Origin: Candidatus Omnitrophota bacterium
GTDB lineage: Bacteria; Omnitrophota; Gorgyraeia; Zapsychrales; Zapsychraceae
Length of the DNA: 64,000 bases
NCBI GenBank assembly: GCA_021108075.1
Contig: JAIORP010000068.1
Location: 10,594-74,593 of the forward strand
Reading direction: 5' to 3'
Shown: positions 2,247-33,963 of the stretch, in pieces
Layout: each line of letters starts with the position of its first letter
Position numbering within the stretch: position 1 is the stretch's first letter
Notes under the pieces: generated by a model
Told to the model about the DNA's origin: nothing
Databases searched by the model: none
The model's input: only the letters and a program-made list of their open reading frames with translations
Position numbers and translations under genes: made by a program

Positions 2247-3377
2247 ATGGATAAAACAGTTCATATTTATCAAAATAAAGGATATGATATTGTGGACATT
2301 AAGAAGTCCCTTTATCACTATTTTGACCGCAAATTTCATTTTAATAATAAGAAGGTTTTACTTAAGCCGAATTTGCTGAAAGCCGCTGCTCCTGAGGCGC
2401 ATGTCACAACACATCCCATTCTCATAGAAGCCCTGGTTCAGTATATTCTGGATATGGGGGGCAAATGTGTGATCGGTGACAGCCCCGCCGGGTGGGGGAT
2501 CGCGCATGTGAAACACGTTGCGGATGTCACGGGCATGACGAACATCTGCGATAAATATAACATCGCGTTCAGTTATTTTGATGCCACTGAAATGCGGAAA
2601 ATGATCATTAAGACGGGCGTTGTGTTTAAAGAGATATTTGTCGCTGAGAATTATTTTGACTGTGATTATGTGATCAATGTGCCCAAACTCAAAACGCATT
2701 CGTTAACGGTTTTTACTCTGGGTGTTAAGAATATGCTCGGTGTTGTGCCTGGTTTACACAAGAAACTTTTTCATGAAAAAGGTCAAGACCCGAAACGCTT
2801 CGCGCAGGCCATATGCGACCTTTTTTCTGTTGTTCAGCCTAACGTAACGGTTTTAGATGGTATCATTGGAATGCATCGAAATGGTCCGGCCAATGGCGAC
2901 CCCATTCCTTTAGGGCGGATATTTATAAGTGAACAGACAAACGCCCTGGACGCGGTTGTCTGTCGCATGTGTGGTGTTGATCCGTTGCAGGTTCCGATTA
3001 CCCGGGCTGTTCATGAACGTGGAATAGGAGACATCCATAATATCCCTGTCCAGAAAGAATACAGCGACCATGATGACGCGTTCAAATCGTTTCAGTTGCA
3101 CAAAATATACAAATTGCGGACGAACCTTCCGGTTCAAGTTTTTTGTTGCCTTTTCGCCCTATTTAAATACAAGCCGAAGATCAATACAAGTGCTTGCACG
3201 AAATGCCACAAATGTGTCGTCATCTGCCCCACTGGAGCGTTATCTCGAACTGAATCCTACCCGCAATTGGATCTGGATAAATGTGTGCGTTGTTTTTGTT
3301 GCTGCGAAATCTGTCCGACAGGGGCAATGTCAGTCGATAAGAATTTTTTTGCGAAACTCGTTAATGAATATCAATGA
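2247..3377 (+). CDS. DUF362-like protein with C-terminal 2x[4Fe-4S] ferredoxin domain
   Basis: N-terminal region matches the DUF362 family pattern (KPNLL..., CVIGDSP). Two CxxCxxCxxxCP motifs are present: CTKCHKCVVICP and CVRCFCCCEICP. Confidence 0.7.
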   Translation: MDKTVHIYQNKGYDIVDIKKSLYHYFDRKFHFNNKKVLLKPNLLKAAAPEAHVTTHPILIEALVQYILDMGGKCVIGDSPAGWGIAHVKHVADVTGMTNICDKYNIAFSYFDATEMRKMIIKTGVVFKEIFVAENYFDCDYVINVPKLKTHSLTVFTLGVKNMLGVVPGLHKKLFHEKGQDPKRFAQAICDLFSVVQPNVTVLDGIIGMHRNGPANGDPIPLGRIFISEQTNALDAVVCRMCGVDPLQVPITRAVHERGIGDIHNIPVQKEYSDHDDAFKSFQLHKIYKLRTNLPVQVFCCLFALFKYKPKINTSACTKCHKCVVICPTGALSRTESYPQLDLDKCVRCFCCCEICPTGAMSVDKNFFAKLVNEYQ

Positions 3378-3517
3378 CAGTAAAATCAGATGGGAAAATG
3401 CCATTACCCGAGGCAGTGTTATGTGAACCACTTAGTAAGCTTTTTTAGGTAGCGACGGGGTTGTGTTGTTCATGGGGCACGTAATAGAACTTTTTATAAC
3501 GCTTGACAATTAATTTT

Positions 3518-3907
3518 ATGAGTCCAGGAAAGACAAAACCAAATCTTCTGCTGGTCATTCCTAATGTGCCGGCCAGTTCATGTCTGAATTCTTTAGCCGC
3601 AGGCATTACCCAACCGCTGGGAATGGCCTATGTTGCTAATTTTATTCGACAGAAGGGTTATTCCGTTATGATTCTGGGCAATTGTGTCGATCAATTATCT
3701 ACAGATGAGTTTGCGGAATACCTTCATGTCGTTAATCCTGATATAATTGGCTTCACGGCAACAACGACGACACTCTCATCCGCTGACCGATACGCAAGAA
3801 TATGTAAAGAAGTGGTGGTTAATGATTATCTGTTTTCTGTTTCGGGTAACAAAAATAGATCTTCTTATTCAAAAGGGTGTCATCATCGCCGTCCTGAAGA
3901 AAAATGA
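3518..3907 (+). pseudogene. B12-binding-domain-only fragment of a class-B radical SAM paralog (no radical SAM core follows)
   Basis: Aligns with N-termini of the 13658 and 18527 proteins (PLGMAYVANFIRQKGYSV, IIGFTATTTT). Terminates after about 130 aa. A full-length paralog follows at 4044. Confidence 0.5.
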
Positions 3908-4043
3908 ACAGTAACGGAAAAAATTTTTATGCCAACAAAGACTTGATTTAAAGCGGGATGATTTTGACGCTATCAAAAGAAGATGTTATTAATATTTTAG
4001 AAAGGATCAACACAGCCATACAAGAGCTTAACGAATAAAAGAC

Positions 4044-5468
4044 ATGAAAATTCTTCTCTTACAACCATATGTTCAGCATGAAATTTCACACATGTGCATA
4101 AAATCCATTGATAAGGAGAAAGGCTTCTTCCCTCCTCTGGGTTTACTTTATATCGCAACATATTTGAAAAAACACACGGCGCATGAGGTGCGGGTCCTTG
4201 ATTGCAACACGGAACATATTGACGTGCCCCGTTTAGAAACGGTCTTACTCGAATTTCAACCGGATATCGTCGGTGTTTCGACGATCACGCATCATCTCAT
4301 TGACGCTTACGCGGCAGCGGCCGTCATTAAAAAGATATCAACGGACATCATCACTGTTTTCGGAGGAGCGCACGCCAGCATTTATCCTATAACCACGGTT
4401 GAAAATTCGAACATTGATTATGCGATCCGCGGAGAAGGAGAGATCGTTTTCACGGAATTGGTGCGGGCCATTGAGCAAAATAAAAGTTTAGCTGAGATTT
4501 CAGCCATTCCCGGGATCGCCACTAAATATTTGGCCAAACGCGGCCTGAAAAACGGAGATATCCAGCGGCTTTTTATTGATGATTTAGACAGCCTTCCCTC
4601 GCCTGACCGGACACTTGTTCCGTATAAGAAGTATCATAATATTCTTTCTCCCAACCGGTATATGACAACCATGTTTACCACCCGGGGGTGCCCGTATCAT
4701 TGCGTCTTTTGTAATCGTATGGGACGAAAAGTGCGTTCTTTGTCGCCGGGTAAGGTGTTATCTGAGATAGAAACCCTGCTTAAGCTGGGGATCAATGAAA
4801 TATTTTTTAAAGATGACACGTTTACTATCGATCAAGACCGCGTCAAATTGATTTGCAAAGGCATTATTGACCGTAATTACGCGTTTACCTGGCAGGTCCG
4901 CACAAGGGCTGACTGTTTTGATTTTGAATTGCTTTCCTTGATGAAAAAAGCCGGTTGCAGCAGGATCAGCTTTGGGATTGAAAGTGGAGATCCTCATATT
5001 TTAAAAATGCTGCGAAAAGAACTTGATTTTGAACTGGCGCGAAATGTTGTTCAATGGTGCCGTCAACTGGGCATCCAGACCTTAGCGAATTATATTATCG
5101 GGTGTCCGGGTGAAACCAAAAAAGAAATTCATAAGACATTGTTGTTTGCTGAAAGATTAGGAACGGACTATGCCTTGTTTTTTATCCTCAGCCTGTACCC
5201 GGACACAGATTTATACCGGCAAGCCATGGCGTCAGGCCTTGTGCCGGGAGATGTTTGGCTGGATTTCGCTAAAAATCCAACCAGGGCGTTCATCGCGCCG
5301 ATATGGAATGAAAATTTTTCCAGAGAGGAACTCGAAGAAATATCAAAGAATATCCACAAAAGATTTTTTATACGGCCGGGTCTCATCCTGCGCGAAATGA
5401 AAAAAATAGAGAGCCCCAATGAATTTATAAAAAAAGTCAGGGCCGCGTGGAATTTATGGCAGGCATAG
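4044..5468 (+). CDS. B12-binding (class B) radical SAM enzyme
   Basis: N-terminal cobalamin-binding-like domain (PPLGLLYIATYLKKH, VFGGAHAS). Radical SAM motif TTRGCPYHCVFCN (CxxxCxxC). Confidence 0.9.
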   Translation: MKILLLQPYVQHEISHMCIKSIDKEKGFFPPLGLLYIATYLKKHTAHEVRVLDCNTEHIDVPRLETVLLEFQPDIVGVSTITHHLIDAYAAAAVIKKISTDIITVFGGAHASIYPITTVENSNIDYAIRGEGEIVFTELVRAIEQNKSLAEISAIPGIATKYLAKRGLKNGDIQRLFIDDLDSLPSPDRTLVPYKKYHNILSPNRYMTTMFTTRGCPYHCVFCNRMGRKVRSLSPGKVLSEIETLLKLGINEIFFKDDTFTIDQDRVKLICKGIIDRNYAFTWQVRTRADCFDFELLSLMKKAGCSRISFGIESGDPHILKMLRKELDFELARNVVQWCRQLGIQTLANYIIGCPGETKKEIHKTLLFAERLGTDYALFFILSLYPDTDLYRQAMASGLVPGDVWLDFAKNPTRAFIAPIWNENFSREELEEISKNIHKRFFIRPGLILREMKKIESPNEFIKKVRAAWNLWQA

Positions 5469-5543
5469 ATGCCAGAACAGTCAGAATGACTTTGATGATT
5501 ATTTAACAAAATTGGTATAAATCAGTAAAAAATATAACTTTTT

Positions 5544-6551
5544 ATGAGAAAATTAATTTTAGTCACAGGTGGAACGGGTTTTATCGGACGGCATTTAGTC
5601 CAAGCCCTGGTTAACGCGGGTAAAAGGATCCGATGCCTTGTCCTGCCTAATAGCGATATAACCGTTTTAAAAAAAATGAGCGTTGAGATTGTTTACGGCG
5701 ATGTTTTAGACCTCCGTTCATTACAAAAAGCTGTTGAGGGGGTCGAGATCGTCTATCACCTTGCAGCGTATGTGCGTCCGTACAGGAATTTTTACCAGTT
5801 GCATAAGTTTTCTGATAGTTTCGATGACGTGAATGTGTTAGGAACACAAAATTTGGCGGATGTGTGCTGTGAAAGTCATGTCCAACGTTTTATTTTTTAT
5901 AGCAGCATTGCTGTCGCCGGGTTAGGTGAAGGGCATACGGAAGCCTCGGTTTGTGAACCGATCACGACATACGGCCAGAGCAAGTTAAAGGCTGAAAAAT
6001 ATTTGATGGCGCTTTATGAATCCAAGAATTTTCCCGTGGTTATTCTTCGTCCAGGGCAGGTTTTCGGCCCTGCGAACATGCCTATGTTAACACTGTTTCG
6101 TTTTGTTAGAAGAGGGGTCCTACCATCTTTTGGCCCTGGAACAAACCGCATACCATTTTGTTTTGTTGATAATTTAATCCATGCGACTTTATCAGCCGAA
6201 AGTAAGGGGTCGATTGGGACACAGTACTACATTTTTGATGAACACCTGACCCTGCGCGGCTTTTCTCTTCTGATTGCTGAAGCGCTGGGTGTTCAATTGT
6301 CGCGCTTTTATATCCCTAAATATTTGGCGGTGCTTGGTATAACCCTGAAGGAACTGATTGAGAAAGTCATTCGGGTTCGCATTTGCCCGTTGAGGATGGA
6401 TATCAGCAGTGAAACGATCAAGATTGCCACGAATAATTGGACATTTTCTAATGAAAAGTCGATCAAAGAACTGGAATATCAATCACAGATTTCATTGAAG
6501 GAAGGAGTTGAGAAAACGGTGCAATGGTATCGTGAACGTGGTTATTTATGA
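5544..6551 (+). CDS. NAD-dependent epimerase/dehydratase (SDR family)
   Basis: Rossmann motif VTGGTGFIGRHL. Catalytic YGQSK (YxxxK). Confidence 0.85.
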   Translation: MRKLILVTGGTGFIGRHLVQALVNAGKRIRCLVLPNSDITVLKKMSVEIVYGDVLDLRSLQKAVEGVEIVYHLAAYVRPYRNFYQLHKFSDSFDDVNVLGTQNLADVCCESHVQRFIFYSSIAVAGLGEGHTEASVCEPITTYGQSKLKAEKYLMALYESKNFPVVILRPGQVFGPANMPMLTLFRFVRRGVLPSFGPGTNRIPFCFVDNLIHATLSAESKGSIGTQYYIFDEHLTLRGFSLLIAEALGVQLSRFYIPKYLAVLGITLKELIEKVIRVRICPLRMDISSETIKIATNNWTFSNEKSIKELEYQSQISLKEGVEKTVQWYRERGYL

Positions 6552-6734
6552 TGTGGAGATAGATTTTTTTAAATAAATTCGGATCAATACCTTTCCCCAC
6601 CCAGTATGATGGTGCTTGAATTCCCCGCAGATGAATTGGAATCAATGTGAAATTTTTTTTTTTTGAATCAGACATTTTAGTGATATATTAATATTTATGT
6701 CTTATAATAATATTTCTATTTATAACAGGTCAAT

Positions 6735-7730
6735 ATGGATAAGTATTTTTTAAATATTCGTCGATTTATTTTGTTGTACAATATTTTTATTCGCAGGGTG
6801 CGCTTAAAGGGGCATACTCAAATGTTGAAGTATGCGTTTAAACGTCTTTTTTTAAGACAGGAAATCCCCATGACGATCATGATCGCGTTAACTTATCGCT
6901 GCCAGTGCCGATGCGTGCATTGCTCGGCTTCGGACCTTTCTGATCAAGCGGGAGAGGAATTGACAACCGCAGAATGTCGGGATGTGATTCGTGAAGCGAG
7001 TGAGCGCGGATTTATTAAAGTCGGCATCACGGGTGGAGAGCCTTTATTACGCGATGATATTGTTGAGATTGTACATTTCGCGTACCGAACAGGGATGAGT
7101 GTCTCTATTGATACGAACGGAATCCTTTTGACGGAACAGATGGTCCGTGAATTAAAAGATGCCGGGATTACGAATATCAATGTCAGTTTAGACCATCCGG
7201 ACGAGAAATATCACAATCGTCTGCGCAGATACAAGAACTGTTTTAAACATGCGCTGGAGGGCATCGATCATTGTGTTCAGCAGAGAATTCCCTGTGTTGT
7301 GTCAACGTATATTACGGATCGGTCTTTTGAAAACAATGAGTTGGATAAAATGATTGCTCTGGCAAAAGAGTTAAAATCGACGGCCGTGCGCTGCCTTTTT
7401 CCTATTCATTCAGGGAAATTCAGTCAGAAAAAAAGGTCATTGCTGTCGCCCGTGAATAAACAGAAGTTTTTTGACACTTACGCGGATGGTTCTTTTGTTT
7501 ATTCGGAGAGTCCGATGTTCGATTTTCAGACGGGACAGTTAGAATGTTCCGCTCTAAAGAAATTGTCTGTTTATTTGACAGCCTATGGAGACCTTAAATA
7601 TTGTCATGTTTCAAATAATGTTTTGGGAAATATTCGATCAGAGTCTTTATCCGAAATACTGAACAGGAATGAATATTCTTCCCCTGAGAACCGGATTAAA
7701 TTAAATTGTCAAACGTTTCACGATCAATAG
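6735..7730 (+). CDS. radical SAM enzyme, SPASM/twitch-type (AslB/PqqE-like fold)
   Basis: CQCRCVHC (CxxxCxxC) and GITGGEPLLRDDI. Cys-rich C-terminus. Paralog of 27510 and of the C-terminal half of 8686. Start ambiguous; in-frame alternative at about 6822. Confidence 0.8.
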   Translation: MDKYFLNIRRFILLYNIFIRRVRLKGHTQMLKYAFKRLFLRQEIPMTIMIALTYRCQCRCVHCSASDLSDQAGEELTTAECRDVIREASERGFIKVGITGGEPLLRDDIVEIVHFAYRTGMSVSIDTNGILLTEQMVRELKDAGITNINVSLDHPDEKYHNRLRRYKNCFKHALEGIDHCVQQRIPCVVSTYITDRSFENNELDKMIALAKELKSTAVRCLFPIHSGKFSQKKRSLLSPVNKQKFFDTYADGSFVYSESPMFDFQTGQLECSALKKLSVYLTAYGDLKYCHVSNNVLGNIRSESLSEILNRNEYSSPENRIKLNCQTFHDQ

Positions 7731-7748
7731 TTCTTTGCTGAGAAAGTT

Positions 7749-8588
7749 ATGGTTTACGATAAAAGCAGATCAGCCTCAAAAAAAATCAGTCTGTTGTATT
7801 CTGGCGGATGCGATTCAACTTTGTCTGCGTCCATCCTGGCTAAAGACTTCGAAGAAATTCATCTGGTAACTTTCAAGCATTATGCGACCTGGAATGTCGG
7901 AAGGTCCAGAATAAATGTTCAGAAGTTAAGGGTTGAAAACAAACAGGTCCGATTCATACATGTTTTTTTGAACACTTCCGGGTTGTTTTATAATATTCAG
8001 AAAGGATTTTTTAACGATCGCGCAATGTTGCCCTATTTTCCGTTATATATTTGTGGAGCCTGTAAGCTAGCCATGCATACGGATTTGATTTGTTATAATT
8101 TGGCCCATGATATCACTTTTGCCTCCAGTGGGGCTTCCCACGAAATGAGTATGTTTCCGGCGCAAACCGAGGGAGGGCTGAGCCATCTTGAGAAGTACTA
8201 TGCTGAATATGGCATGCAATTGATGAGTCCCGTCTACCGGAAGAAGAACGTTGATGTTGAGGCTATTGAAAAGGGTCTTCTCGAGCCCCGGCATCTAAAA
8301 AAAAAACATAAAGCAAGCTGGAATAAGTTATCAGATTTATATGTCCCTATAAAGAATGTTATTGATAATACTCAGGGATTTTGTTTTTGGATCGCGGCTG
8401 TTGATATTTATATCGCCCGGGAACAAAAGAAGAGCCGTCTTAGCCGGACACAACAAGTAAGTCGTGTATCAAAATTTTCACAGCAATATTATCAAAAAAA
8501 AATTGATGATATTTGTAGAAAATATATTGAATTAAGTCAAAAGAAGCAGAAGCGCAAACAAATTAATCATACCAAATTCATTGTTTAA
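7749..8588 (+). CDS. PP-loop ATP pyrophosphatase family protein (QueC/LarE-like)
   Basis: N-terminal SGGCDS PP-loop motif. Lys-rich C-terminal tail. Confidence 0.6.
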   Translation: MVYDKSRSASKKISLLYSGGCDSTLSASILAKDFEEIHLVTFKHYATWNVGRSRINVQKLRVENKQVRFIHVFLNTSGLFYNIQKGFFNDRAMLPYFPLYICGACKLAMHTDLICYNLAHDITFASSGASHEMSMFPAQTEGGLSHLEKYYAEYGMQLMSPVYRKKNVDVEAIEKGLLEPRHLKKKHKASWNKLSDLYVPIKNVIDNTQGFCFWIAAVDIYIAREQKKSRLSRTQQVSRVSKFSQQYYQKKIDDICRKYIELSQKKQKRKQINHTKFIV

Positions 8589-8597
8589 TGTTCTATT

Positions 8598-8673
8598 TCA
8601 ATTCTGATATTCTTGCTAAAGCGTCGAGAAAAGCAGAATTGATTTTGGTAATTATTTAATGGAATTGGTATCA
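8598..8673. repeat. MITE/REP-like repeat, copy D (variant with GCGTCGAGAAAAGCAGAATT core)
   Basis: ...GCGTCGAGAAAAGCAGAATTGATTTTGGTAATTATTTAATGGAATTGGTAT. Confidence 0.75.
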
Positions 8674-8685
8674 ACAGGAAAATAG

Positions 8686-11259
8686 ATGCATATTGTATTT
8701 GTTCATACCGGACAGGAAAGTCTCGGTCTGGAATATTTATCTGCCGTTTTGAAAATTCATGGACACAAAGTGTCATTGGTCTATGAGCCTCTCATTTTTC
8801 GCTCATTTCGGTTTTATTTCCCTTCTTTGGACCGTCATCCACCACAAACGATCGCACAGCGAGCGTTGGCCGCTGAACCGGACCTGATCTGTTTTTCCAT
8901 TGAATCTGATTATTTCGGTTGGGCATGTCAGGTTGTAAGGGAACTTAAACAATTAAAAGATATCCCCATTCTTCTGGGAGGAATTCATCCAACGTCTGTT
9001 CCGGAAAACGTTATTTCAGAAACATCGGTTGATTATATCTGTCTTGGTGAGGGTGAGGATGCCCTGGTCGAATTGGTTGCCAGTCTTGAAAGAAAAGATG
9101 GCCGAATGGATATTTTAAATATATGGTATTGTCGGCAAGACCGTATTATCCGCAATCCTTTGCGCCCATTAAATGAAAATCTTGACGATTTCCCTTTCCC
9201 GGATAAAGAATTGTTTTACCGGGAATACCCTGGTTTTATCAATGATGTCTATACAATCATCACCGGGAGGGGGTGTTGTAACGCGTGCAGTTATTGTTAC
9301 AATAGCATGCTACAAAAACGTTATGAGGGTCGGGGTCGTTATTTAAGGCGTCGGAGCGTGGAGAATGTTATTGCTGAATTGAAGCACGCTCACCGTGTAT
9401 ATCATTTTAAGCGGGTAACTTTTTGTGATGATGTTTTTACCACCGATCTTTCATGGTTGGAGAGTTTTGTCTCTTTATACAAAAAAGAAATCGGTCTTCC
9501 TTTTTATTGCCAGGTTCACCCATCTTTTGTTGATAAAACCAGGATACAGTTGTTAGCCGACGGAGGGTGTACGGTGGTCAATTATGGTATCCAGACTATT
9601 GATGAAAATTTACGCAAACGCTATTTGCATCGCCAGGGATCCAATCGGGAGATTGTTCAGCACCTTAATGATTTTTATGAAACTAAAATTTTTTTGTTCA
9701 CTAATTTTATTGTCGGATTGCCCCGTCAGGACGAGGAAGAATTAATACGCATTGTTGAATTTTGTTGTTCGCATCCGGCCGGATTTCATGATGTGAATTG
9801 GCTGCGGTATTATCCGGGCACTGATATTGTTTCTATTGCTCAAAGGGAAGGCCTTTTGACTGAACAGGACGTCGAAAGGATTAATGCGTCTCGGGATTAT
9901 CAGCCATATGCCCATGGCGGACATGCCCGCACAAAGCAAAGATCGCAGTTAAGAAATTTGATATTTTTGACCCATATTCTCCCGAAGGGTTTGATCCGCT
10001 GGCTGCTGGAGCGTCAACGGTATCGTTTCTTACCAACATTTAATATGCGAAACATGATTGTTATTCCACGATTATTGTTTATGAAATGGGTTAAGGGCAG
10101 GAAATATCCGTATCCAAATCTTTCTTTATTCGGAAATTTGAAGTATTACTGGCATTGCCTTGTCTCCAGGGTTCGTAAAAAAAATACTCGCAAGAAATTT
10201 CATAGATTAACCGGTTTTAAGGCCCTGGTGCGTCGATTTATGAATATGTTTTATTTGTATAAAATGTTAAACAGGAAGGTATGGGTTCAATCATGCCGGT
10301 ATTTTATTTTTCGTTTTATTTTGCGCAAGAAGATACCGGGAACAGCGATACTGGCTTCAACTTTTCATTGTCAGCTGGATTGTGAATGCTGTTCAGCCGG
10401 GATTTTCAGGCGATATTATCAAGGAGTTGAAGAAATGTCCTTGAAAGAAACGGAAGATAAAATTCGAGAGATAGCTAAGATCGGTATTCCACGGCTCCAT
10501 CTTGCGGGCGGGGAACCGTTGCTAAGAAAAGATATTGTAGATATCGTTAAGGTCAGCTCGGACTGTGGGCTGATTGTTTTTCTGGAAACAAACGGTTTGC
10601 TGCTCACAGAAGAAATGATCCTCCGCCTGAAGTCCTCCGGGATTTCCAGTGTTAATGTGAGCCTGGATAGTGCGGATGCGTTTAAACATAACCGTTTAAG
10701 GACACGCGCGGGAGTCTTTGAACATGTCTGTCAGGTGATTACGCTTTGTGTGAAACACAAGGTGAATTGTATCGTGTCGACCTATGCGACAAAAGAGAAT
10801 ATCTATAATGGTGATCTGAATGCTTTAATTCAGTTATCAAAACGTATGAAATGTTATGGGATTCGGGTGATTGCGCCTCAACCGGCAGGGAATTGGATCC
10901 TGTGTGATGATGTGATTTTAAGCCGGGAAGATAATGCTGCAGTTGAGGCGATGATGCCGATTTTTTTTATGGCCCTTAATCGAACAAAGTTGATCCGCTG
11001 TCCGTTACGGACTGCCTATAAATTGTTCATTTTACCTGACGGTCAGATCGCTCCGTGCGAACATTTGCCGTATATTTTTAAGGATTCAAACGGTATGTCT
11101 CTTGAACGGCTTCCTGAGCTCATTAACCGTTTTGATATGTTTTCAAAAAATTATTATTGTCTTCCTCGGGATAGAGATTTTCGTCAACGATATTATAAAA
11201 AAGGAGTGTCCAGGGATATGTCACCCATATTTTTAGATGCTGACGTTCAAAATGATTAA
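8686..11259 (+). CDS. fusion protein: N-terminal B12-binding radical SAM plus C-terminal SPASM-type radical SAM
   Basis: N-half resembles the 29283 protein (LGLEYLSA, ITGRGCCNACSYCYN). C-half resembles 6735 and 27510 (FHCQLDCECCSAG, LAGGEPLLRKDIVDIV). Confidence 0.85.
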   Translation: MHIVFVHTGQESLGLEYLSAVLKIHGHKVSLVYEPLIFRSFRFYFPSLDRHPPQTIAQRALAAEPDLICFSIESDYFGWACQVVRELKQLKDIPILLGGIHPTSVPENVISETSVDYICLGEGEDALVELVASLERKDGRMDILNIWYCRQDRIIRNPLRPLNENLDDFPFPDKELFYREYPGFINDVYTIITGRGCCNACSYCYNSMLQKRYEGRGRYLRRRSVENVIAELKHAHRVYHFKRVTFCDDVFTTDLSWLESFVSLYKKEIGLPFYCQVHPSFVDKTRIQLLADGGCTVVNYGIQTIDENLRKRYLHRQGSNREIVQHLNDFYETKIFLFTNFIVGLPRQDEEELIRIVEFCCSHPAGFHDVNWLRYYPGTDIVSIAQREGLLTEQDVERINASRDYQPYAHGGHARTKQRSQLRNLIFLTHILPKGLIRWLLERQRYRFLPTFNMRNMIVIPRLLFMKWVKGRKYPYPNLSLFGNLKYYWHCLVSRVRKKNTRKKFHRLTGFKALVRRFMNMFYLYKMLNRKVWVQSCRYFIFRFILRKKIPGTAILASTFHCQLDCECCSAGIFRRYYQGVEEMSLKETEDKIREIAKIGIPRLHLAGGEPLLRKDIVDIVKVSSDCGLIVFLETNGLLLTEEMILRLKSSGISSVNVSLDSADAFKHNRLRTRAGVFEHVCQVITLCVKHKVNCIVSTYATKENIYNGDLNALIQLSKRMKCYGIRVIAPQPAGNWILCDDVILSREDNAAVEAMMPIFFMALNRTKLIRCPLRTAYKLFILPDGQIAPCEHLPYIFKDSNGMSLERLPELINRFDMFSKNYYCLPRDRDFRQRYYKKGVSRDMSPIFLDADVQND

Positions 11260-12313: not shown

Positions 12314-12315
12314 AT

Positions 12316-17130: not shown

Positions 17131-17167
17131 TAAACAGAGAAGTGAAAACATAAAGGGTTAAGTGGTG

Positions 17168-23389: not shown

Positions 23390-23446
23390 CAAGATGGATG
23401 ATAAAAATTTTTTATAATGTTTTTTGTGTTTGGGGAGCAGAAAAGA

Positions 23447-27230: not shown

Positions 27231-27378
27231 CCGGCTAAAGCTCATTCCTCCCGCCGCAATATCAGACATTTCAGAATAAGAGTAAGACGGTCCGGTCCCC
27301 CAACCGCCCTTTCGGGATTCATACAATATATTTGACATCAATGAGATAAGAAATGTATAATGTTTCGTTGCTCTTTGT

Positions 27379-27509: not shown

Positions 27510-28550
27510 TTGAAGTTGAAGAGTTTGCAGGGTTTTTGTGGAAGAACGTATTTGACGGCTAAAATATTTTCTAAACTCGTTTTACCTCATTTGTATGGGA
27601 AAGTCATCAGTAACACAGTATCCCGCTGTTTAATAATTTATAAACCATCGTCTGCTGTCTTAGGCCTGACTTATCGCTGCCAGTGCCATTGCGTGCATTG
27701 TTCGGCTGGTTCCTATCGGTATGAAGTGAGTCAAGATCTGTCAACAACAGAATGGATGGGTTTACTGGATGCTATCCATCAGTTAGGTGTTCCCCGGATT
27801 AATCTGACCGGGGGTGAAGCCCTATTAAGAGAAGACATTTTTGATATTATTGCCTATGCGGCAAAAAAAATTGTCGTGATTCTGGAAAGCAACGGCCTGT
27901 TGATTTCTGACGAGGTGGCCTTAAAACTCAAAAAAGCGAAGGTATCTTGCGTGGCCGTCAGTATCGATAGCGTTGACGGGCCGGGGCATGATTCCTTCAG
28001 AGGCGTCCAAGGCTGCGTTGATAACGCCATCAAGGGGATAGAGCATCTGAATAAGGCGAGGATCCCCTTCATGGCGACATATATCCGTGCTGAGAACGCG
28101 CGTGTTGATTATATTCAAGGGTTCATGGATTTAGCGAAAAAGATGAACGTTATGGCCGTAAGGATTTTGCCCCCGCGCCCTGCCGGAAATTTTTCCTGTC
28201 ATGTGGATGCGTTGCTGAGCAAGGAAAATGAAACGCTCATCCGGGAAAACACGGATCTCTTTATGTTTTATTTTAATGGCATGCCGGCGCCACGTATGTG
28301 CGGAACTTTTTCTAAAGCAACGTTTTACATCTCTCCTTATGGGGACATTCAGCTCTGCCCCTACCTGTCCATTTCTTTCGGTCATATCAAGGACGGATCC
28401 TTGCGTTCTTTATTGGAGAAAATGTGGTCGCACGCCATTTTTCAAGACGATGGAACAGACTGCTTTGTCCTGAACGCGTCTTTTCGCAAGCGATATTTGG
28501 ATGGTTGTGTCAGTTATCCCTGTGATGACACAATATTGATGAATGAGTAA
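27510..28550 (+). CDS. radical SAM enzyme, SPASM/twitch-type
   Basis: CQCHCVHC and LTGGEALLREDIFDI. Cys-rich C-terminus. Paralog of 6735. TTG start 11 nt after AAGGAG. Confidence 0.8.
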   Translation: MKLKSLQGFCGRTYLTAKIFSKLVLPHLYGKVISNTVSRCLIIYKPSSAVLGLTYRCQCHCVHCSAGSYRYEVSQDLSTTEWMGLLDAIHQLGVPRINLTGGEALLREDIFDIIAYAAKKIVVILESNGLLISDEVALKLKKAKVSCVAVSIDSVDGPGHDSFRGVQGCVDNAIKGIEHLNKARIPFMATYIRAENARVDYIQGFMDLAKKMNVMAVRILPPRPAGNFSCHVDALLSKENETLIRENTDLFMFYFNGMPAPRMCGTFSKATFYISPYGDIQLCPYLSISFGHIKDGSLRSLLEKMWSHAIFQDDGTDCFVLNASFRKRYLDGCVSYPCDDTILMNE

Positions 28551-28589
28551 AAGGGCCCTTTTTTACGTTTAAGACGGAAGAGAATGGAT

Positions 28590-29261
28590 GCGTATGGATC
28601 AATTTAATATAAATACAAATTCATCTGAAAAATATCCTGGTCTCGTCCAATCAGTGATGAAACGGGGGCATGAAATTGCCAGCTACGGCATGGACATCAG
28701 TTGGTGTCTAAAATGACTCAAAAAGAATTTATTTCGGATGTCACACCGTCCTTAGGTATTTTACGGAACATGACAGGAAAAAAGATATGGGGGTATCGGG
28801 CACCAACCTGGTCGATCGCAAAGGATGTCGATTGGACCATGCGGACCCTGAAATCCATCGGGCTGAAATATGACTCCAGTATTTACCCGATCAGTAAAAA
28901 TATTTTTACCGGGCATAAAAAACAACGGTTTGCGCATGATATTATTAAAGATTTCAAGGAGTTTCCTCCTGCAACGTTTCAATTCGGGGGGGGCAGTTTT
29001 CCTTTGTCTGGAGGCACGTTCTTGCGCTATTGGCCCGTTTCTTTTGTTCGCCGTAACATTGAGAAGATGAATCATGCCCGGCAGGCGGCCATGATATATT
29101 TTTATCCCTGGGAATTTTATAAAGATATACCGCAGAAGAAGATTCCCGCGTGGAAATACGCCGTCCAGTGGGGGAATGTGCGATGTGTGAGGCCTAAAGT
29201 CGAGTGCCTGCTACAGAATTTTAAGTTTTTATCGATAAGGGATGTGTTAAATTTGGTTTAA
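28590..29261 (+). pseudogene. polysaccharide deacetylase pseudogene (N-terminally deleted, frameshifted at about 28690)
   Basis: KYPGLVQSVMKRGHEIASYG in one frame stops after a few codons. Homology to the 19986 protein resumes in another frame (MTQKEFISDV...GLKYDSS). Confidence 0.65.
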
Positions 29262-29282
29262 CTTCTTTGATATCGGATTATC

Positions 29283-30782
29283 ATGCGTGTAGGATTTCTA
29301 AACCCGGGGTATGAACATTTAGGCCTGGAATATTTGTCGGCGTCATTGCGCCGGGCAGGCCATACCACACAGTTGTTTTTAGACCCGATCTTATTCAATG
29401 AAAGCGGATTTATCCAGCGCCCCTTACTGGCCAAATGGTTTTCCTTTGAAAAACACATCATCCGTTCCATTCAAGAATATCAGCCCGACCTGTTGTGCCT
29501 GTCTGTGCTCTCGGATAATTATCAATGGGCCTGCTCGTGGGCGGAAACGATTAATTCGGTTTATTCCGTTCCTATTGTCATCGGAGGTATTCATCCCAGT
29601 TCTGTTCCTGATCATGTCATTCAAAATCAATGGATTGATTATCTTTGCGTGGGCGAGGGGGAGGAGGCCCTGGTTGATCTGGTCCGGTGTTTAGAGGCAA
29701 AACAGAACCCTTCCCGGATAAAAAATATTTGGACCGTCCAGGCGGGTCAGGTTCACCGCAATGAGGTGCGTCCGTTGATATCGGATATCAACACCCTTCC
29801 CTATCCGGACAAAGCCCTGTTTTATTCCCAACTGCCGGCCTTGAAACGTATTTATTCCATCAGCACGTCTCGTGGTTGTCCCTTCACATGCAGTTATTGT
29901 TGCAATAATGTCTGGAAATCCATCTATCGCGCCCGGAAAAGTCTGTTGCGCCGCCGTTCGGTTGCCAACGTGATCGATGAGTTGTCAGACGCCAAAAGAA
30001 GGTACGTTCCAAAGTCGATCGCTTTTTTGGACGAAGTCTTTAACATGGAAAAGGAATGGCTGTTAGATTTTTTTAAAGAGTACCGGGCTAAAATTGATTT
30101 GCCTTTTTCCTGTTTTGTTTTTCCTGATTATTTGGATGAGGAAATTATTCTGGAATTAAAGAAAAGCGGTTGCATCAAGGTTCAGATGGGTGTGCAGTTG
30201 ATCGATGAAGAAAAACGCAACCGTTTGTTAAACCGCAGGTCCTCGAACGCGAAGATTCAGACGGCCATCGCGTTGTGCAAGCAGACCGGTATTTTTGTGG
30301 CCTGTGATGTCATCTGGGGGCTGCCGGACACAACCGAAGCGGATCTGTTCCAGGCCGTTGACTTTTTTTGTCAGACGACGCCTGACCATATTGAAATTTT
30401 TTGGCTGCGTTATTATCCGAAGACCAGCCTGACGGAATGGGCCAGAAAGAATGGCTATCTTACAGCGGCGGATTATCAGGCCATCAATGAAGGTGTGGTG
30501 TCGACCGGGATTGTGCGCGGGAAAAACAAGGCCACAAAGCTGGAAAAGAAAATTTTTGTTCTGTTGTATTTATGGCCGTTATTGCCAGAGAAACTCCGGA
30601 TGTATTTGGCTAAAAAATCTTTCTACCGGTTTCTCCCGGCAGGGGTGTCTATTTTAGCGCTTTATATATTGAAAAGGCTTGTGAAAAGGTCTCGGTATGA
30701 TATAAATACGGAGCAGACAATGTCCAGATATGTGTACTTTATGTTTTTGAAATTTAAATTAAAGGTAAAATTGCAAAGATAA
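29283..30782 (+). CDS. B12-binding (class B) radical SAM enzyme
   Basis: LGLEYLSASL and STSRGCPFTCSYCCN. Homologous to the N-half of 8686. Confidence 0.9.
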   Translation: MRVGFLNPGYEHLGLEYLSASLRRAGHTTQLFLDPILFNESGFIQRPLLAKWFSFEKHIIRSIQEYQPDLLCLSVLSDNYQWACSWAETINSVYSVPIVIGGIHPSSVPDHVIQNQWIDYLCVGEGEEALVDLVRCLEAKQNPSRIKNIWTVQAGQVHRNEVRPLISDINTLPYPDKALFYSQLPALKRIYSISTSRGCPFTCSYCCNNVWKSIYRARKSLLRRRSVANVIDELSDAKRRYVPKSIAFLDEVFNMEKEWLLDFFKEYRAKIDLPFSCFVFPDYLDEEIILELKKSGCIKVQMGVQLIDEEKRNRLLNRRSSNAKIQTAIALCKQTGIFVACDVIWGLPDTTEADLFQAVDFFCQTTPDHIEIFWLRYYPKTSLTEWARKNGYLTAADYQAINEGVVSTGIVRGKNKATKLEKKIFVLLYLWPLLPEKLRMYLAKKSFYRFLPAGVSILALYILKRLVKRSRYDINTEQTMSRYVYFMFLKFKLKVKLQR

Positions 30783-30924: not shown

Positions 30925-32088
30925 ATGAATAAATATCGAAAAGAAATCGTTTTGTTTTTTCTGGTGCTTTCTTTTTGTTTGAGGTTTGCCGTTGCCTCTG
31001 AAGCTGAGTTGACCTTTGATGAAAATTACTGGATCGGTTATGTTAAGCATTGTTCCGTCGAAGATGGGAAGATCAATTTTGTCTGGCATGGCTCAGGCCA
31101 TCCGGCCTTAGCCGTTTATCTGATCAAACTCAGCACGGTCATTTTTGGAGAAAGCGTGCTCGGCCATCGCTTGATGAACCTGTACGCGGGTGTTTTAACG
31201 GTTTGGATGTTGTATCTCATATCCATGCGGTGGTTTGGTTTCGGCGCGGCGGTGTGGACGCTTATTTTAGCGACCTTTAATGAATACCTGATCGGTATTT
31301 CAGCGATTGCCACGGCAAAAAGTTATTATTTTTTATTCGCTTCGGCGGGAATCTATTTGTTTTATCGGGGATTAGAAGAGAAGAGTAAACAAAAAATCTA
31401 TGGGAGCGGTTTTTTTGTCGGGCTGGCCTTTTTGAGCAGTGAAATATCCGCTTTATTGATCGTGGCCTTTGCTCTGTTCTTGTTGTGTTCGAAATACCGG
31501 TTCTGGTTTAAGCGCAAAGAGATTTATTTTGCCGCGTTGATTTTTTTCGTCGTGATATCGCCGGACATTTGCTTTAACATTACCAATCAAACGCCGGACC
31601 ATGATGGTTTGGTGAATTATTTGGATCACTTCAAACGCATCGGGCGGATTGGTTTCAGCATTCATCCCTTTGCCTTTTATTTTAGCGATTTCTATAATGG
31701 CCTTTTAACCCCCAGGGGGCTATGGGAAAACATGTCTCCGGAATATCCGGCGCCCAATGGCTTTTGGGGTTTTCTTTGCTTCGCGGGGACAATTTTCGCG
31801 TTATTTGTTAAGAAACAACCGCTGGAAAAGATTTTGCTGATCATTTTTTTTCTTGTGTTCGGTATTCTGCTGTTTTTAACATGGGTTCCGGATGATCCTG
31901 TTTGGGAAGCAGGTTTGGTTAAAGTTGAATGGGTTTGGTGCGCGATTACCCTGATCCCGGCGCTTTTGCTGACAGCCCATAAGATCGCTCAGATAAAGGA
32001 GCGCCATTCATGGTTGTATTTCTTTATCATTTTATTTGTGATGACTGCTGTCTATAAAACTTTCATGAGTGTGAGCGCCTGGCAATAA
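30925..32088 (+). CDS. polytopic membrane protein, GT-C (ArnT/PMT-like) glycosyltransferase-like
   Basis: Multi-TM protein with N-terminal pattern reminiscent of GT39/GT83 enzymes. Weak call. Confidence 0.4.
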   Translation: MNKYRKEIVLFFLVLSFCLRFAVASEAELTFDENYWIGYVKHCSVEDGKINFVWHGSGHPALAVYLIKLSTVIFGESVLGHRLMNLYAGVLTVWMLYLISMRWFGFGAAVWTLILATFNEYLIGISAIATAKSYYFLFASAGIYLFYRGLEEKSKQKIYGSGFFVGLAFLSSEISALLIVAFALFLLCSKYRFWFKRKEIYFAALIFFVVISPDICFNITNQTPDHDGLVNYLDHFKRIGRIGFSIHPFAFYFSDFYNGLLTPRGLWENMSPEYPAPNGFWGFLCFAGTIFALFVKKQPLEKILLIIFFLVFGILLFLTWVPDDPVWEAGLVKVEWVWCAITLIPALLLTAHKIAQIKERHSWLYFFIILFVMTAVYKTFMSVSAWQ

Positions 32089-32089
32089 T

Positions 32090-32192
32090 GCCAATCACAT
32101 TAAATAATTCTTCTGATTTCTCATCGCTATTTGCGTAAAAGCGTTCGCAAAAAACGACGGAATAAAACAATTCATTAATGGATTTGGTATCA
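32090..32192. repeat. MITE/REP-like repeat, degenerate copy G
   Basis: CACATTAAATAATTC...GCGTAAAAGCGTTCGC...CATTAATGGATTTGGTAT. Confidence 0.55.
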
Positions 32193-32520
32193 TATCGCGT
32201 TTATCGACCGGATCGTTTGTTGAGCGGGAAGACATGCGAAATTTTTTAATTTGTCATTTTTATTGGAGTTGATCACAGCAGAACATGATTGCCGAAATTA
32301 GCCATATCCTCTATAATTACGTGTTAATGCGATGATTGTCCCGGGATGTCAGGAAAAGGGAATGGGCGTTTGTTGCTGATTTATTCTTGGATGCTCCAGA
32401 CGGGGAGCGGCGCGGAAAGAGTCAATAGGATATTTTTTTGATCGGGTCTCAGACGCACGAACATTCATTCTTCACTCGCATGGTTATCAGTTTAAACTAT
32501 TTGTACGGTTCAAAAATCAG

Positions 32521-33963
32521 ATGAAAAAAGTCAGTGTAACATTGTTAAAAAAATTTTGTGTTTTTTTGATCGGCCTTTTTGTGGGACTCTGTCTGCTCGA
32601 GGCCGGCCTGCGTGTCGTAGGATATATTGTTCTGCATCAGAGATCACAGGTGCGGAAAATAGCTCAGGTGCGGAAAAACAGGAACGCGCAGACGATCCTG
32701 TTTTTAGGTGATTCGTATACCTTCGGAGGCAATGTCTCTGTTCATCAAAATTTTCCCAGTCAGTTTGAAGAGATATTGAAAACAAAGCGGCTGGCCCAGG
32801 ATATTCGGGTTGTCAACGGTGGGTGGTGTGAACAAACGACCCGTGACCTTCTTCCGCGTTTAAAAAAAATATTGTCCACGCATCAACCGGATGTGATTGT
32901 CCTTTTGATCGGCGCGGCCAACCGTTACAACCTGGATGATTATGATTTCTCCCGGAATCAATTATTTTATTTTTTAACGAATTTACGCGTTTACAAGATG
33001 GCGCGTATTATCGCGGTGAATTTAAAGGCGAACCGTCTGGCCCATGACGCGCGGCATTTCGGTCTGAACGCGGATTTATACAAAAAAAGAGTGCGACAAT
33101 TACGTCATTTTCAGTCCATCGATCAATACTCCGAGGATTTGACCCTGGACCAAAAAGCTTTTTATTATTTTAATAAGGGAGATCATGATAAAGCGTGGGA
33201 GCTTATTCATGTTTTTCTCAAGAGTCATCCGGAATCCCTTGAGGCGCTTATGGCCGCAGGCTTTTTTCATTATAAAAAATATGAGTATGCGCAGTGTGAT
33301 GTGGTCCTTCAGAGAATAATTAAAATTTGTGAGACCCGGATAGCCAACAATCAGACCTCTGAGCGGGTTCGCTCTCATCTCGCGTTTGCCGCCGTCTCAC
33401 GCGCGAATTTTCTTTTGGTTTTCCGCCGGCATGCCGACGCGATTGATTATATTTTTAAAACATTATTGATTGAACCGAATGGAACGCTGCTTCAATATTT
33501 GATCCGTTCGTATTCCCTGCAAAGCAAGTACTCGGCAGCCGATATGGTCGGTTTTTATGACGAGTTGTTTCGAAAAAAACCGGAGCTGCGGGATTTCAAA
33601 TTGTTCTTAAATAATTACCGGTATTTTTCTGATGAAAAAGTTTGGGAGAAAAGGCTGGAGTCCTGGCTGCGCGACGATCTGGACGAAATTGTGAGGATAT
33701 GTCGTCAGAGCGGGGTAACGCTCATTCTGCAAAATTATCCTTTTCCCTATGCTGTCGCTAATACCGCGATTGAGGATGTTGCCAGAAAATATTCATTGCC
33801 TGTGATCGATCAGTTGTCTTATTTTGAAGAGTTGATAGGTCAGGGTTTTGAGAACGATTATTTAGAAGATGACGCCCATTGCACAGTCAAAGGCTATCAA
33901 CATATGGCCCGTCATATTTATGACTATTTATCATCCATTAATATGTTAGAAGTTAGAAAGTGA
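32521..33963 (+). CDS. membrane-anchored SGNH/GDSL hydrolase family protein
   Basis: N-terminal TM helix. FLGDSYTFGG block I. C-terminal DDAHCT (DxxH block V). Confidence 0.6.
   Translation: MKKVSVTLLKKFCVFLIGLFVGLCLLEAGLRVVGYIVLHQRSQVRKIAQVRKNRNAQTILFLGDSYTFGGNVSVHQNFPSQFEEILKTKRLAQDIRVVNGGWCEQTTRDLLPRLKKILSTHQPDVIVLLIGAANRYNLDDYDFSRNQLFYFLTNLRVYKMARIIAVNLKANRLAHDARHFGLNADLYKKRVRQLRHFQSIDQYSEDLTLDQKAFYYFNKGDHDKAWELIHVFLKSHPESLEALMAAGFFHYKKYEYAQCDVVLQRIIKICETRIANNQTSERVRSHLAFAAVSRANFLLVFRRHADAIDYIFKTLLIEPNGTLLQYLIRSYSLQSKYSAADMVGFYDELFRKKPELRDFKLFLNNYRYFSDEKVWEKRLESWLRDDLDEIVRICRQSGVTLILQNYPFPYAVANTAIEDVARKYSLPVIDQLSYFEELIGQGFENDYLEDDAHCTVKGYQHMARHIYDYLSSINMLEVRK

Follow-up and report, generated by a model that had tools for sequence, protein, structure and literature searches.

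An Omnitrophota gene cluster with ten radical-SAM domains and a possible role in tailoring an amino-sugar glycoconjugate

To our knowledge, almost all known radical S-adenosylmethionine (rSAM) chemistry on sugars comes from a few antibiotic pathways of cultured actinomycetes. Described systems that come close to the cluster studied here include the tailoring of aminoglycoside and nucleoside-antibiotic sugars (AprD4/AprD3, BtrN, GenK, BlsE) and of moenomycin (MoeK5/MoeE5). Comparable enzyme sets occur in the XrtA/PEP-CTERM exopolysaccharide loci, in the hopanoid side-chain pathway (HpnI of glycosyltransferase family 2 (GT2), HpnK, HpnJ, HpnA and HpnE) and among the rSAM enzymes of tetraether lipids (Tes/GDGT-MAS, Grs, Hbs, Hgm and Cds, where GDGT stands for glycerol dialkyl glycerol tetraether). 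In addition, rSAM-rich loci flank the group VI nitrogenase-like (NFL, NflHDK) genes of groundwater Elusimicrobia, and a cofactor role was proposed for them (Meheust et al. 2020, 10.1101/765248); their function was still unknown in 2026 (PMC13474568). Here, we analyzed a stretch of 64,000 nucleotides (the window) from a Candidatus Omnitrophota bacterium (contig JAIORP010000068.1, positions 10,594 to 74,593), in which ten intact rSAM domains, spread over nine genes, lie in a single cluster at ~2.2-34 kb of the window. The whole cluster is on the + strand, as are all large open reading frames (ORFs) of the window. A search of the literature found neither this cluster nor its combination of genes described.

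Protein families were assigned by Pfam and NCBIfam scans of the window proteins. All genes listed in an initial annotation of this DNA were found in place on the + strand, and their family assignments held. The CxxxCxxC motif is kept in ten out of ten rSAM domains. Five of these domains combine PF02310 with PF04055, and their domain content agrees with the earlier proposal of five class B (B12-binding) enzymes, namely those encoded by genes 4044, 8686 (N-terminal half), 13658, 18527 and 29283 (genes are named after their first position in the window). It should be borne in mind that AprD4 has a B12-binding domain yet does not use B12. The signature gene of the cluster is 8686 (8686..11259, +), predicted to encode an 857-amino acid (aa) fusion of a group-B B12-binding rSAM and a twitch-like rSAM, with the cysteines C197/C201/C204 in the N-terminal half, and C562/C566/C569 plus C772/C791/C825 in the C-terminal half. 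The AlphaFold model of the fused protein had a mean confidence (pLDDT) of 86.9. Its N-terminal half matched the folds of TsrM, MgmA, AprD4, CysS and TokK, and its C-terminal half those of SkfB, BlsE, viperin and MoaA, with SuiB and PqqE also as fold neighbours. As far as a predicted model can tell, the fold search confirms both rSAM classes, and it does not discriminate between substrates.

Both halves of the fused protein have unfused paralogues. Gene 29283 (29283..30782, +), a core gene, codes for a putative group-B B12-binding rSAM with 38% identity to the N-terminal half. The twitch-like rSAMs 6735 (6735..7730, +; auxiliary cysteines C271, C290 and C325), also a core gene, and 27510 (27510..28550, +; C264, C283 and C318) share 31-32% identity with each other and with the C-terminal half of 8686, 27510 being about equally close to both others. 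The best solved relative of 6735 is BlsE. These three proteins and 16129 had been annotated as SPASM/twitch enzymes. The presence of cysteine-rich C-terminal rSAMs was borne out; because only three auxiliary cysteines are conserved in 6735, 27510 and the C-terminal half of 8686 (spacing 19 and 34-35), these look twitch-like (MoaA-like) rather than full SPASM. The SPASM model PF13186 matched 6735 (24.8 bits) and 16129 (34.9 bits) above its cutoff and 27510 below it (17.2 bits), and did not match the C-terminal half of 8686. Gene 16129 (16129..17130, +) encodes an rSAM/SPASM protein of a separate lineage, whose best model is the tungsten-cofactor maturase family TIGR04317 (79 bits vs a cutoff of 380).

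To find related loci, homologues of the fused protein were collected from one genome per species, and ORFs were called and clustered in the 52 loci returned. Full-length homologues with 34-59% identity are present in Omnitrophota and in many metagenome-assembled genomes (MAGs) of Elusimicrobiota. The fused protein, or a split pair, is encoded at 17 loci, the window included, most of them from Elusimicrobiota. Many of these contigs end early, so the family counts are lower bounds: a twitch rSAM was found in 17/17 loci, a group-A-type B12-rSAM in at least 14, a PaaK-like enzyme in at least 13, FemAB-like and group-B rSAM proteins in at least 12 each, a short-chain dehydrogenase/reductase (SDR) in at least 10 and the flavoprotein in at least 7. 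Across the wider locus set, the fused protein (or split pair) recurs together with a free twitch rSAM, and the group-B family of 29283 was found at 46 of 53 loci. Relatives of the cluster have as many as about twelve rSAM genes.

The closest relative is a sister Omnitrophota locus (L006/L065), which begins with a DegT aminotransferase gene and has orthologs of twelve window genes, rearranged in order and still clustered. The identities are 68% for the PP-loop ATPase, 62% for the group-B rSAM, 59% for both the fused protein and the flavin (FAD) protein, 56% for the twitch rSAM 6735, 54% for the SPASM protein 16129, 53% for both the SDR and the deacetylase, 52% for the PaaK-like enzyme, 49% for the FemAB-like protein, 40% for the methyltransferase and 25% for the 21287-type membrane protein. 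Among rSAM enzymes, the sister locus thus shares the fused protein, the unfused group-B paralogue and two SPASM/twitch proteins (6735 and 16129). It has no counterpart of the MiaB-like gene 17162, nor orthologs of the DUF362, PMT_2, SGNH and lipoprotein (23417) genes.

The ten rSAM domains are not of equal weight: the group-A B12-rSAMs and the MiaB-like enzyme vary by lineage. The three group-A proteins are HpnJ/BchE/AprD4-like and only 29-38% identical to one another. They are encoded by genes 4044 (4044..5468, +; HpnJ 195 bits vs a cutoff of 578), 13658 (13658..15118, +; HpnJ 235 bits vs 578) and 18527 (18527..19978, +; BchE 239 bits vs 481), and reach only 25-29% identity to any sister-locus rSAM (26-29% for 4044). 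Gene 18527 has counterparts with ~50% identity in Elusimicrobiota loci, and its product has AprD4 as best solved relative (E 1.6e-25). The MiaB/RimO-like methylthiotransferase homologue proposed for 17162 (17162..18475, +) does have the UPF0004 and rSAM domains, and N-terminal cysteines at positions 29, 65 and 97. Its TIGR00089 score (194 bits) is below the cutoff of 251, no TRAM domain was detected, and it did not qualify for the MiaB/RimO family; the family of this protein is present in only 4 loci. From these comparisons, the core is predicted to consist of the fused protein, a free twitch rSAM, the FemAB-like and PaaK-like proteins, the SDR, a flavoprotein similar to UDP-galactopyranose mutase (UGM), the NodB deacetylase and the ~550-aa membrane protein of the 21287 type, with the three HpnJ/BchE-like B12-rSAMs, the MiaB-like enzyme, DUF362, PMT_2 and SGNH proteins as apparent variable accessories.

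Because this core recurs syntenically in the sister locus and in many Elusimicrobiota genomes, we conclude that the cluster is, by all sequence indications, one coherent functional unit with an uncharacterised product, composed of a conserved core and of lineage-variable extra tailoring enzymes. This agrees with the initial annotation, which had seen one functional cluster without a known match, and the genes proved to be linked across loci rather than scattered over separate pathways. An assembly artefact is excluded, because independent assemblies of several samples yielded contigs with this locus. One of these contigs, of 168.7 kb (ENA ERZ26872899, NODE_2), contains the window, and NCBI places its proteins in a Candidatus Omnitrophica MAG. 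The junctions between genes from 4044 to 20852 are short or overlapping. A rough calculation of our own, which assumes that 2% of genes are rSAM genes, puts the chance of nine such genes among 23 neighbours at the order of 1e-10; synteny is the stronger argument for a real unit.

We propose that this oxygen-independent cluster may tailor an amino sugar within a membrane-anchored glycoconjugate, which could be a lipid-linked glycan or the head group of a glycolipid, and assign this reading of the sequence comparisons a probability of about 45%. A carbohydrate substrate is favoured, first, because the nearest relatives of the non-rSAM enzymes (flavoprotein, SDR, deacetylase, FemAB-like protein and the PMT_2 protein 30925) and the neighbours of related rSAMs elsewhere (GT2, DegT, epimerases) are of the carbohydrate type, and second, because the nearest solved relatives of the rSAMs, BlsE for the twitch and AprD4 for the B12-type domains, act on sugars. 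Thus, of the lipid, glycan or small peptide that had been considered as product, a carbohydrate is preferred and nothing supports a peptide.

The extended SDR of the epimerase/dehydratase type, a core protein (5544..6551, +; Pfam Epimerase 125 bits), has solved relatives that are mostly nucleoside diphosphate-sugar epimerases/dehydratases, moenomycin MoeE5 included. The intact deacetylase of the CE4/NodB type with a C-terminal DUF3473 domain (19986..20852, +; core gene) matched TIGR03006, the model of the XrtA exopolysaccharide deacetylase, over its full length and near threshold (234.6 bits, cutoff 276), and its solved relatives are peptidoglycan and chitin deacetylases. The flavoprotein (25875..27230, +; Pfam Amino_oxidase, NAD_binding_8 and GLF; PRK07208 group; core gene) has UGM of T. 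cruzi as best solved relative (E 4.7e-22). The GGH loop and the diphosphate-binding arginine of the YFP..F.R motif are conserved between them; one arginine is out of register, the C-terminal tyrosines are outside the alignment and TIGR00031 gave 48 bits vs 303. For the FemAB-like (Acetyltransf_6) transferase (11237..12313, +; core gene), the sole NCBIfam match was the FemAB model of exopolysaccharide loci, TIGR03019 (130 bits, full length, cutoff 260). The adjacent PaaK/F390-synthetase-like adenylating enzyme (12286..13644, +; core gene) matched the NCBIfam families DVU_1553 (90 bits) and FlxY (82 bits), and its solved relatives are phenylacetate-CoA ligases (E 7e-18). A PP-loop ATPase with an SGGCDS motif and weak DUF7411/QueC matches (7749..8588, +) belongs to the core in Omnitrophota loci. 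A class I S-adenosylmethionine (SAM) methyltransferase with an N-terminal Cys4 zinc ribbon is encoded at 15115..16035 (+; Pfam Methyltransf_23 76 bits).

The surroundings of related rSAMs were examined for stand-alone group-B homologues, which occur in DPANN archaea, bacteria of the candidate phyla radiation (CPR), Planctomycetia, Deltaproteobacteria and other groups. Within 5 kb of such homologues, at up to 37 diverse loci, the most frequent families among 140 ORFs were represented by 21 rSAM, 14 GT2, 9 methyltransferase, 7 DegT, 6 UGM-like FAD, 4 epimerase and 3 GT1/GT4 genes. In at least five loci, a NodB deacetylase gene adjoins an rSAM gene, usually of the B12 type.

Two membrane proteins may serve the product at the membrane. 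Gene 21287 (21287..22978, +), a conserved companion of the cluster, codes for a 563-aa polytopic protein with ~10 hydrophobic segments, by hydropathy, of an unclassified family without a match in Pfam or NCBIfam. Members of this family have ~540-565 aa and nearly invariant residues D44, D62, R170, N293/E296 (in an LNxNEH motif) and S352/R353. Word-indexed homologue searches with 21287, singly and as a profile, gave 2 matches, and an exhaustive HMMER search found only 135 cluster representatives among 1.84 billion. All five genomic contexts of the family that were looked up hold cluster-type genes, and four of them hold rSAM genes. Of these four, one is the sister locus, and the other three are rSAM-rich, with PMT/PMT_2, GT2, DegT, NodB deacetylase or UGM-like genes; the remaining context, a 5.4-kb contig, has PaaK-like, methyltransferase and FemAB-like genes. 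The second protein, 30925 (30925..32088, +), with ~8 hydrophobic segments, is a homologue of PMT_2 polytopic membrane glycosyltransferases of the GT-C type (81 bits vs 26.1, PF13231). Several GT-C-like membrane proteins had been proposed for the cluster, and 30925 alone fell into this class (PMT_2/ArnT-like), whereas 21287 is unclassified and 23417 is a predicted lipoprotein. Further PMT_2 genes are found elsewhere on the source contig and in one related metagenome locus (L060, L062).

We infer every step of the route that follows. The SDR 5544 would oxidise or epimerise an N-acetyl-hexosamine-type precursor, nucleotide- or lipid-linked, which the UGM-like enzyme 25875 would rearrange. The NodB/DUF3473 deacetylase 19986 would then free the amine of the sugar, which could be re-acylated by the FemAB-like transferase 11237 with an aminoacyl donor and by the PaaK-like enzyme 12286, adenylating a carboxylate; the PP-loop ATPase 7749 might provide a third ATP-dependent activation in this re-acylation. 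The conserved rSAM set, i.e., 8686, its unfused paralogues 29283 and 27510, the twitch enzyme 6735 and the SPASM enzyme 16129, would act at unactivated carbons, with C-methylation, deoxygenation/dehydration, decarboxylation/epimerisation and ring contraction as candidate reactions. Further decoration may come from the lineage-variable set, composed of the three HpnJ/BchE/AprD4-like B12-rSAMs, the MiaB-like enzyme and the SAM methyltransferase. Electrons would be supplied by the DUF362-ferredoxin 2247, the membrane protein 21287 and the PMT_2 protein 30925 would handle or transfer the lipid-linked product at the membrane, and the SGNH hydrolase 32521 would be active outside the cytoplasm. Mycothiol synthesis follows the same logic of deacetylation and subsequent ligation of an amino acid.

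The aminoglycoside and nucleoside-antibiotic systems share with the cluster B12-rSAMs and twitch rSAMs alongside an SDR, a deacetylase and a flavoenzyme, for all of which amino sugars are plausible substrates. The rSAMs of the cluster have their best solved relatives in AprD4 and BlsE, and MoeE5 is among those of the SDR, yet identities are low, and the AprD4 (NF033070, 102-133 bits vs 500) and BlsE (TIGR04466, 70 bits vs 400) models scored far below their cutoffs. In contrast to those systems, the cluster lacks a 2-deoxy-scyllo-inosose synthase and a set of glycosyltransferases, adds FemAB-like, PaaK-like and PP-loop enzymes as well as dedicated membrane proteins, and resides in an uncultivated anaerobe rather than an actinomycete. 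XrtA/PEP-CTERM exopolysaccharide loci combine the TIGR03006 and TIGR03019 families with an acyl-CoA ligase; the cluster deacetylase and FemAB-like protein align with these models over their full length, with an adenylating enzyme alongside. By analogy, this likeness suggests a shared logic of de-N-acetylation followed by N-acylation. Both scores are, however, under the cutoffs (234.6 vs 276 and 130 vs 260), and neither the window nor its 10-kb flanks contain an exosortase, PEP-CTERM protein, chain-length determinant, Wza or priming transferase. Likewise, a conventional exopolysaccharide locus with export and polymerase genes, which could have accounted for the gene set, is found neither in the window nor in the 10 kb to each side. 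We know of no exopolysaccharide locus that carries ten rSAM domains. The cluster therefore appears to resemble the rSAM sugar-tailoring logic of the aminoglycoside, blasticidin, moenomycin and hopanoid side-chain pathways, yet it differs from all of them, as judged from its sequences, in falling short of the family models of known pathways, in its natural B12-rSAM/twitch-rSAM fusion and in its unclassified signature membrane protein.

Several observations weigh against an amino-sugar glycoconjugate. Because no cluster protein reached the NCBIfam curated cutoff for any family model, all functions are inferred at the family level. The reaction types of the rSAMs cannot be read from sequence, and their best NCBIfam models (HpnJ, BchE, AhbD and the 'ladder' lipid B12-rSAM) fit lipid or tetrapyrrole chemistry too. 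The near relatives of the SDR also include the sterol and lipid enzymes NSDHL, HpnA and OleD. Nucleotidyltransferases, priming and GT-A/GT-B glycosyltransferases and Wzx, Wzy or ABC exporters are all missing from the window; in agreement with the initial annotation, Pfam detected neither a GT2/GT4 glycosyltransferase nor a nonribosomal peptide synthetase or polyketide synthase in 2.2-34 kb. The membrane proteins add to these points. The AlphaFold model of 21287, built on a two-sequence alignment, was unusable (pLDDT 35.5), comparison of its family with a small PMT_2 alignment by hhalign gave a probability of 0.6%, i.e., no relation, and a 53-sequence profile of the family had no significant match among PDB sequences (best E ~0.4). 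The GT-C enzyme EmbA was among these insignificant matches (E ~0.4) and was not used as evidence. Finally, tblastn detected no orthologs of 30925 and of the SGNH protein 32521 in related loci.

A bolder version of the amino-sugar reading, which we regard as doubtful, is that the cluster represents a new class of envelope glycoconjugate pathway in ultra-small anaerobes (Omnitrophota and Elusimicrobiota, reduced in DPANN and CPR), in which a sugar is rebuilt by up to ten or more rSAM reactions, the fused protein is a two-step catalyst and the 21287 family installs the product. If so, carbohydrates that are multiply C-methylated, deoxygenated, carbocyclic or thio-substituted would be expected, without known counterpart. 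A tie to the sugar enzymes would make the cluster a pointer to a hidden anaerobic glycan or glycolipid chemistry in uncultivated phyla. It offers candidates for new enzyme activities, among them a natural B12-rSAM/twitch-rSAM fusion, a new family of membrane proteins, possible biomarkers or surface determinants for Omnitrophota and Elusimicrobiota, and candidates for the unexplained rSAM-rich loci of groundwater Elusimicrobia.

The strongest rival, which we consider unlikely and somewhat less probable still than a new pathway class, is membrane-lipid tailoring, in which the rSAMs act on membrane-spanning, ether or hopanoid-like lipids, either on their hydrocarbon chains or on the polar head, and the sugar enzymes build the head group only. 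The best model for the group-B B12-rSAMs is indeed TIGR04072 ('lipid biosynthesis B12-binding/radical SAM', 103-115 bits), that for group A is HpnJ, the SDR scores best on HpnA, SdmB and OleD, and the FAD protein matches HpnE weakly; all these scores are, however, 2-5 fold under the cutoffs. The enzyme classes are those of the hopanoid side-chain pathway, membrane proteins belong to the cluster, and the deacetylase adjoins an HpnJ-like B12-rSAM, mirroring the HpnK/HpnJ pairing that Schmerk and colleagues reportedly described in 2015. HpnK, by contrast, is of the YdjC type and the cluster deacetylase of the NodB type, the HpnJ (195-235 vs 578) and HpnA (165 vs 368) scores do not place the cluster proteins in these families, and the window lacks a squalene-hopene cyclase, HpnCDE, HpnH and HpnG. 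As to tetraether lipids, the H-GDGT bridge synthase Hbs is AhbD-like, lies in a cluster with a B12-rSAM methylase, and is represented by homologues in Omnitrophota (10.1101/2023.10.20.563219). The cluster likewise has AhbD-like twitch rSAMs together with B12-rSAMs, and GDGT-MAS is among the solved relatives. Nevertheless, at 331-346 aa the cluster twitch rSAMs are too short for the C-terminal extension described for Hbs, the Tes match is weak (26.6 bits vs a cutoff of 450, in 16129), and a search of the window and its 10-kb flanks turned up no tes, mss, ger or shc gene and none for squalene, prenyl or fatty-acid synthesis. The conserved partners are of the sugar type, and GT2, DegT and epimerase genes dominate the neighbours of related rSAMs. 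In its glycolipid head-group version, this explanation merges with the amino-sugar reading.

Maturation of a ribosomally made, post-translationally modified peptide (RiPP), with B12-rSAM C-methyltransferases and SPASM/twitch cross-linkers acting on a ribosomal precursor in the proteusin or ranthipeptide style, is improbable. The enzyme classes would fit, since ApyD, TIGR03975 (C-methyltransferase models), SkfB, PqqE and WgkB are among the sub-threshold matches, and SkfB, SuiB and PqqE among the fold neighbours of the fused protein. The earlier statement that no RiPP precursor is apparent was nonetheless upheld: no small ORF is conserved across 16 loci with the fused protein or split pair and none is evident in the gaps of the window, although a short, hypervariable precursor could escape a conserved-ORF search. 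Moreover, there is no PqqD or RiPP recognition element (RRE) domain, 6735 and 27510 have only ~45 residues ahead of their CxxxCxxC motif, Pfam found no leader peptidase or ABC exporter in the window, and the conserved partners are sugar-type enzymes and the FemAB/PaaK pair rather than RiPP machinery.

Even less probable is a novel tetrapyrrole or other cofactor, as proposed for the NFL-flanking loci. In its favour, BchE and AhbD are among the top-scoring NCBIfam models, and rSAM-rich loci have been reported next to NflHDK in groundwater Elusimicrobia. Those loci come from the same phylum as most fused-protein loci, have many rSAMs, some of them B12-binding, and, like the cluster, have no assigned product. 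We rejected the possibility that the cluster is such a group VI locus, as it has no NifH-like gene: tblastn with NifH (E <= 10) gave no match in the 64-kb window or in any fused-protein locus, and NifH/NifD/NifK-like genes are absent from the window and from within 10 kb of the fused-protein homologues. The Pfam scans of the window and its 10-kb flanks gave no Fer4_NifH or Oxidored_nitro match and no chelatase or tetrapyrrole-synthesis gene, and no known tetrapyrrole pathway has a place for the deacetylase, UGM-like enzyme, FemAB-like protein or polytopic membrane proteins. A stand-alone group-B homologue does lie ~3 kb from a NifH-like gene in a Sandaracinaceae MAG (L055, CAYVFC010000018.1). 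That gene, at 13853-14305 of the contig, has 43% identity over 152 aa, and through it the group-B rSAMs may be connected to group VI nitrogenase-like loci, which have been reported from Myxococcales and Elusimicrobia.

That the cluster is not one system at all, with unrelated rSAM genes side by side or in decay, is hardly credible: three remnants, a right-hand third with wider gaps and probably its own promoter, and the lack of conservation elsewhere of the DUF362, PMT_2, SGNH and 23417 genes would fit such a view, but the twelve orthologs of the sister locus are rearranged yet clustered, the core is kept across two phyla, and intact motifs in all ten rSAM domains go together with tight junctions from 4044 to 20852.

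The first of these remnants, at 3503..3907 (+), is the B12 domain of a group-A B12-rSAM gene without an rSAM core (Pfam B12-binding 47.6 bits); it matches only residues 9-99 of 13658, and its called length varies between assemblies. The second, at 28582..29261 (+), is a decayed copy of the deacetylase with 55% identity to 19986, a frameshift near 28689 and the first ~60 residues gone; the metal-binding histidines are lost (SHGYSH to SYGMDI). Possibly, a very decayed B12-rSAM has left a trace at ~21020-21160. The cluster had been described as two paralogous modules. The paralogy of 29283 and 27510 to the halves of 8686 was confirmed; a second whole module was not found, the deacetylase copy being dead, and the block 27510-30782 is best read as an unfused paralogue of the fused gene that flanks this dead copy. 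Immediately downstream of the cluster, at 34286-34519, is part of an ISL3-type transposase gene, the N-terminal zinc-finger region. Recent rearrangement is suggested by this fragment along with the three pseudogene remnants within the cluster.

Of the accessory genes, 2247 (2247..3377, +) codes for a protein of the DUF362 family (183 bits in Pfam) that carries a 2x[4Fe-4S] ferredoxin domain (Fer4) at its C terminus and is likely the electron donor to the rSAM clusters; tblastn gave no match for it in 54 related loci. The lipoprotein gene 23417 (23417..25033, +) encodes 538 aa with a predicted signal peptide and an LSGC lipobox. Its membership in the cluster is doubtful, because it is not conserved in related loci (no homologue by tblastn). 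Gene 32521 (32521..33963, +) encodes a putative membrane-anchored SGNH hydrolase with a tetratricopeptide repeat region (Pfam Lipase_GDSL_2 52 bits), and marks the right-hand edge of the cluster. A terminator-like hairpin follows it at 33973. An Asn-synthase gene at 59784 was considered as a displaced cluster member and rejected, as its product is only 22% identical to the Asn-synthase of the sister locus.

Promoter-like sites were at about the level of shuffled sequence and terminator-like hairpins somewhat above it, and neither was taken as evidence for operons. The exception is a perfect sigma-70 consensus at 27332-27361, ahead of 27510. An Rfam scan of the window revealed no cobalamin or SAM riboswitch, its sole match being a tRNA. 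A 42-nt repeat (AAAGCAGAATTG..TTTGGT.ATTATTTAATGGAATTGGTAT) is dispersed between genes, with five copies of at most one mismatch where none is expected, at 8630-8671(+), 25398-25439(-), 36020-36061(+), 40084-40125(+) and 45081-45122(-), and further copies, longer but degenerate, at 1051-1194 and 32162-32216. Each + strand copy is followed, 15-87 nt after its end, by a start codon (8686, 36148 and 40150). The repeat may be a shared promoter, an element of the 5'-untranslated region, or a repeat similar to miniature inverted-repeat transposable elements.

Some related loci carry further features. In L063 (JGI 3300038673, Ga0416707_000279, 1-21629), ten rSAM genes, nine with a B12-binding match, lie in ~21 kb. 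One of the proteins encoded there is a 1596-aa B12-rSAM fused to a PQQ_2 beta-propeller, and the locus also has a membrane protein of the 21287 family, a UGM-like flavoprotein, a NodB deacetylase and a GT2 gene. This is a cluster of the same kind in denser form. In L011, L013 and L048 (Elusimicrobiota and Omnitrophota), Peptidase_U32 genes adjoin the fused rSAM gene. The Peptidase_U32 family includes O2-independent hydroxylases such as UbiU/UbiV, and by analogy these neighbours hint at anaerobic hydroxylation as an extra tailoring step in relatives.

Directly upstream of the cluster is a bacterial serpin gene (71-847, cut by the start of the window; 401 aa in full), which is not conserved beside related clusters. 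On the other side, a tRNA-Asp gene (45242-45318) is followed, up to 58003, by a mobile/defence island with sharp shifts in GC content (0.34-0.51). The island carries genes for an IS630-type DDE_3 transposase (46160), a Sll1717-family P-loop ATPase (47610), an FkbM methyltransferase (50304) and a TIR-domain protein (52656), as well as a pair of HamA (53814) and DEAD-helicase (54638) genes that looks like Hachiman. Between the cluster and the tRNA gene, two long proteins are encoded. The one at 36672-40043 has 1123 aa, of which the first ~620 form a region with no assigned function, joined to a complete phosphoglycerate kinase domain, and the one at 40150-44934 has 1594 aa, with no significant Pfam domain and one weak sub-threshold match. 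For Omnitrophota, proteins of unusual length have been described (bioRxiv 10.64898/2026.06.07.730766).

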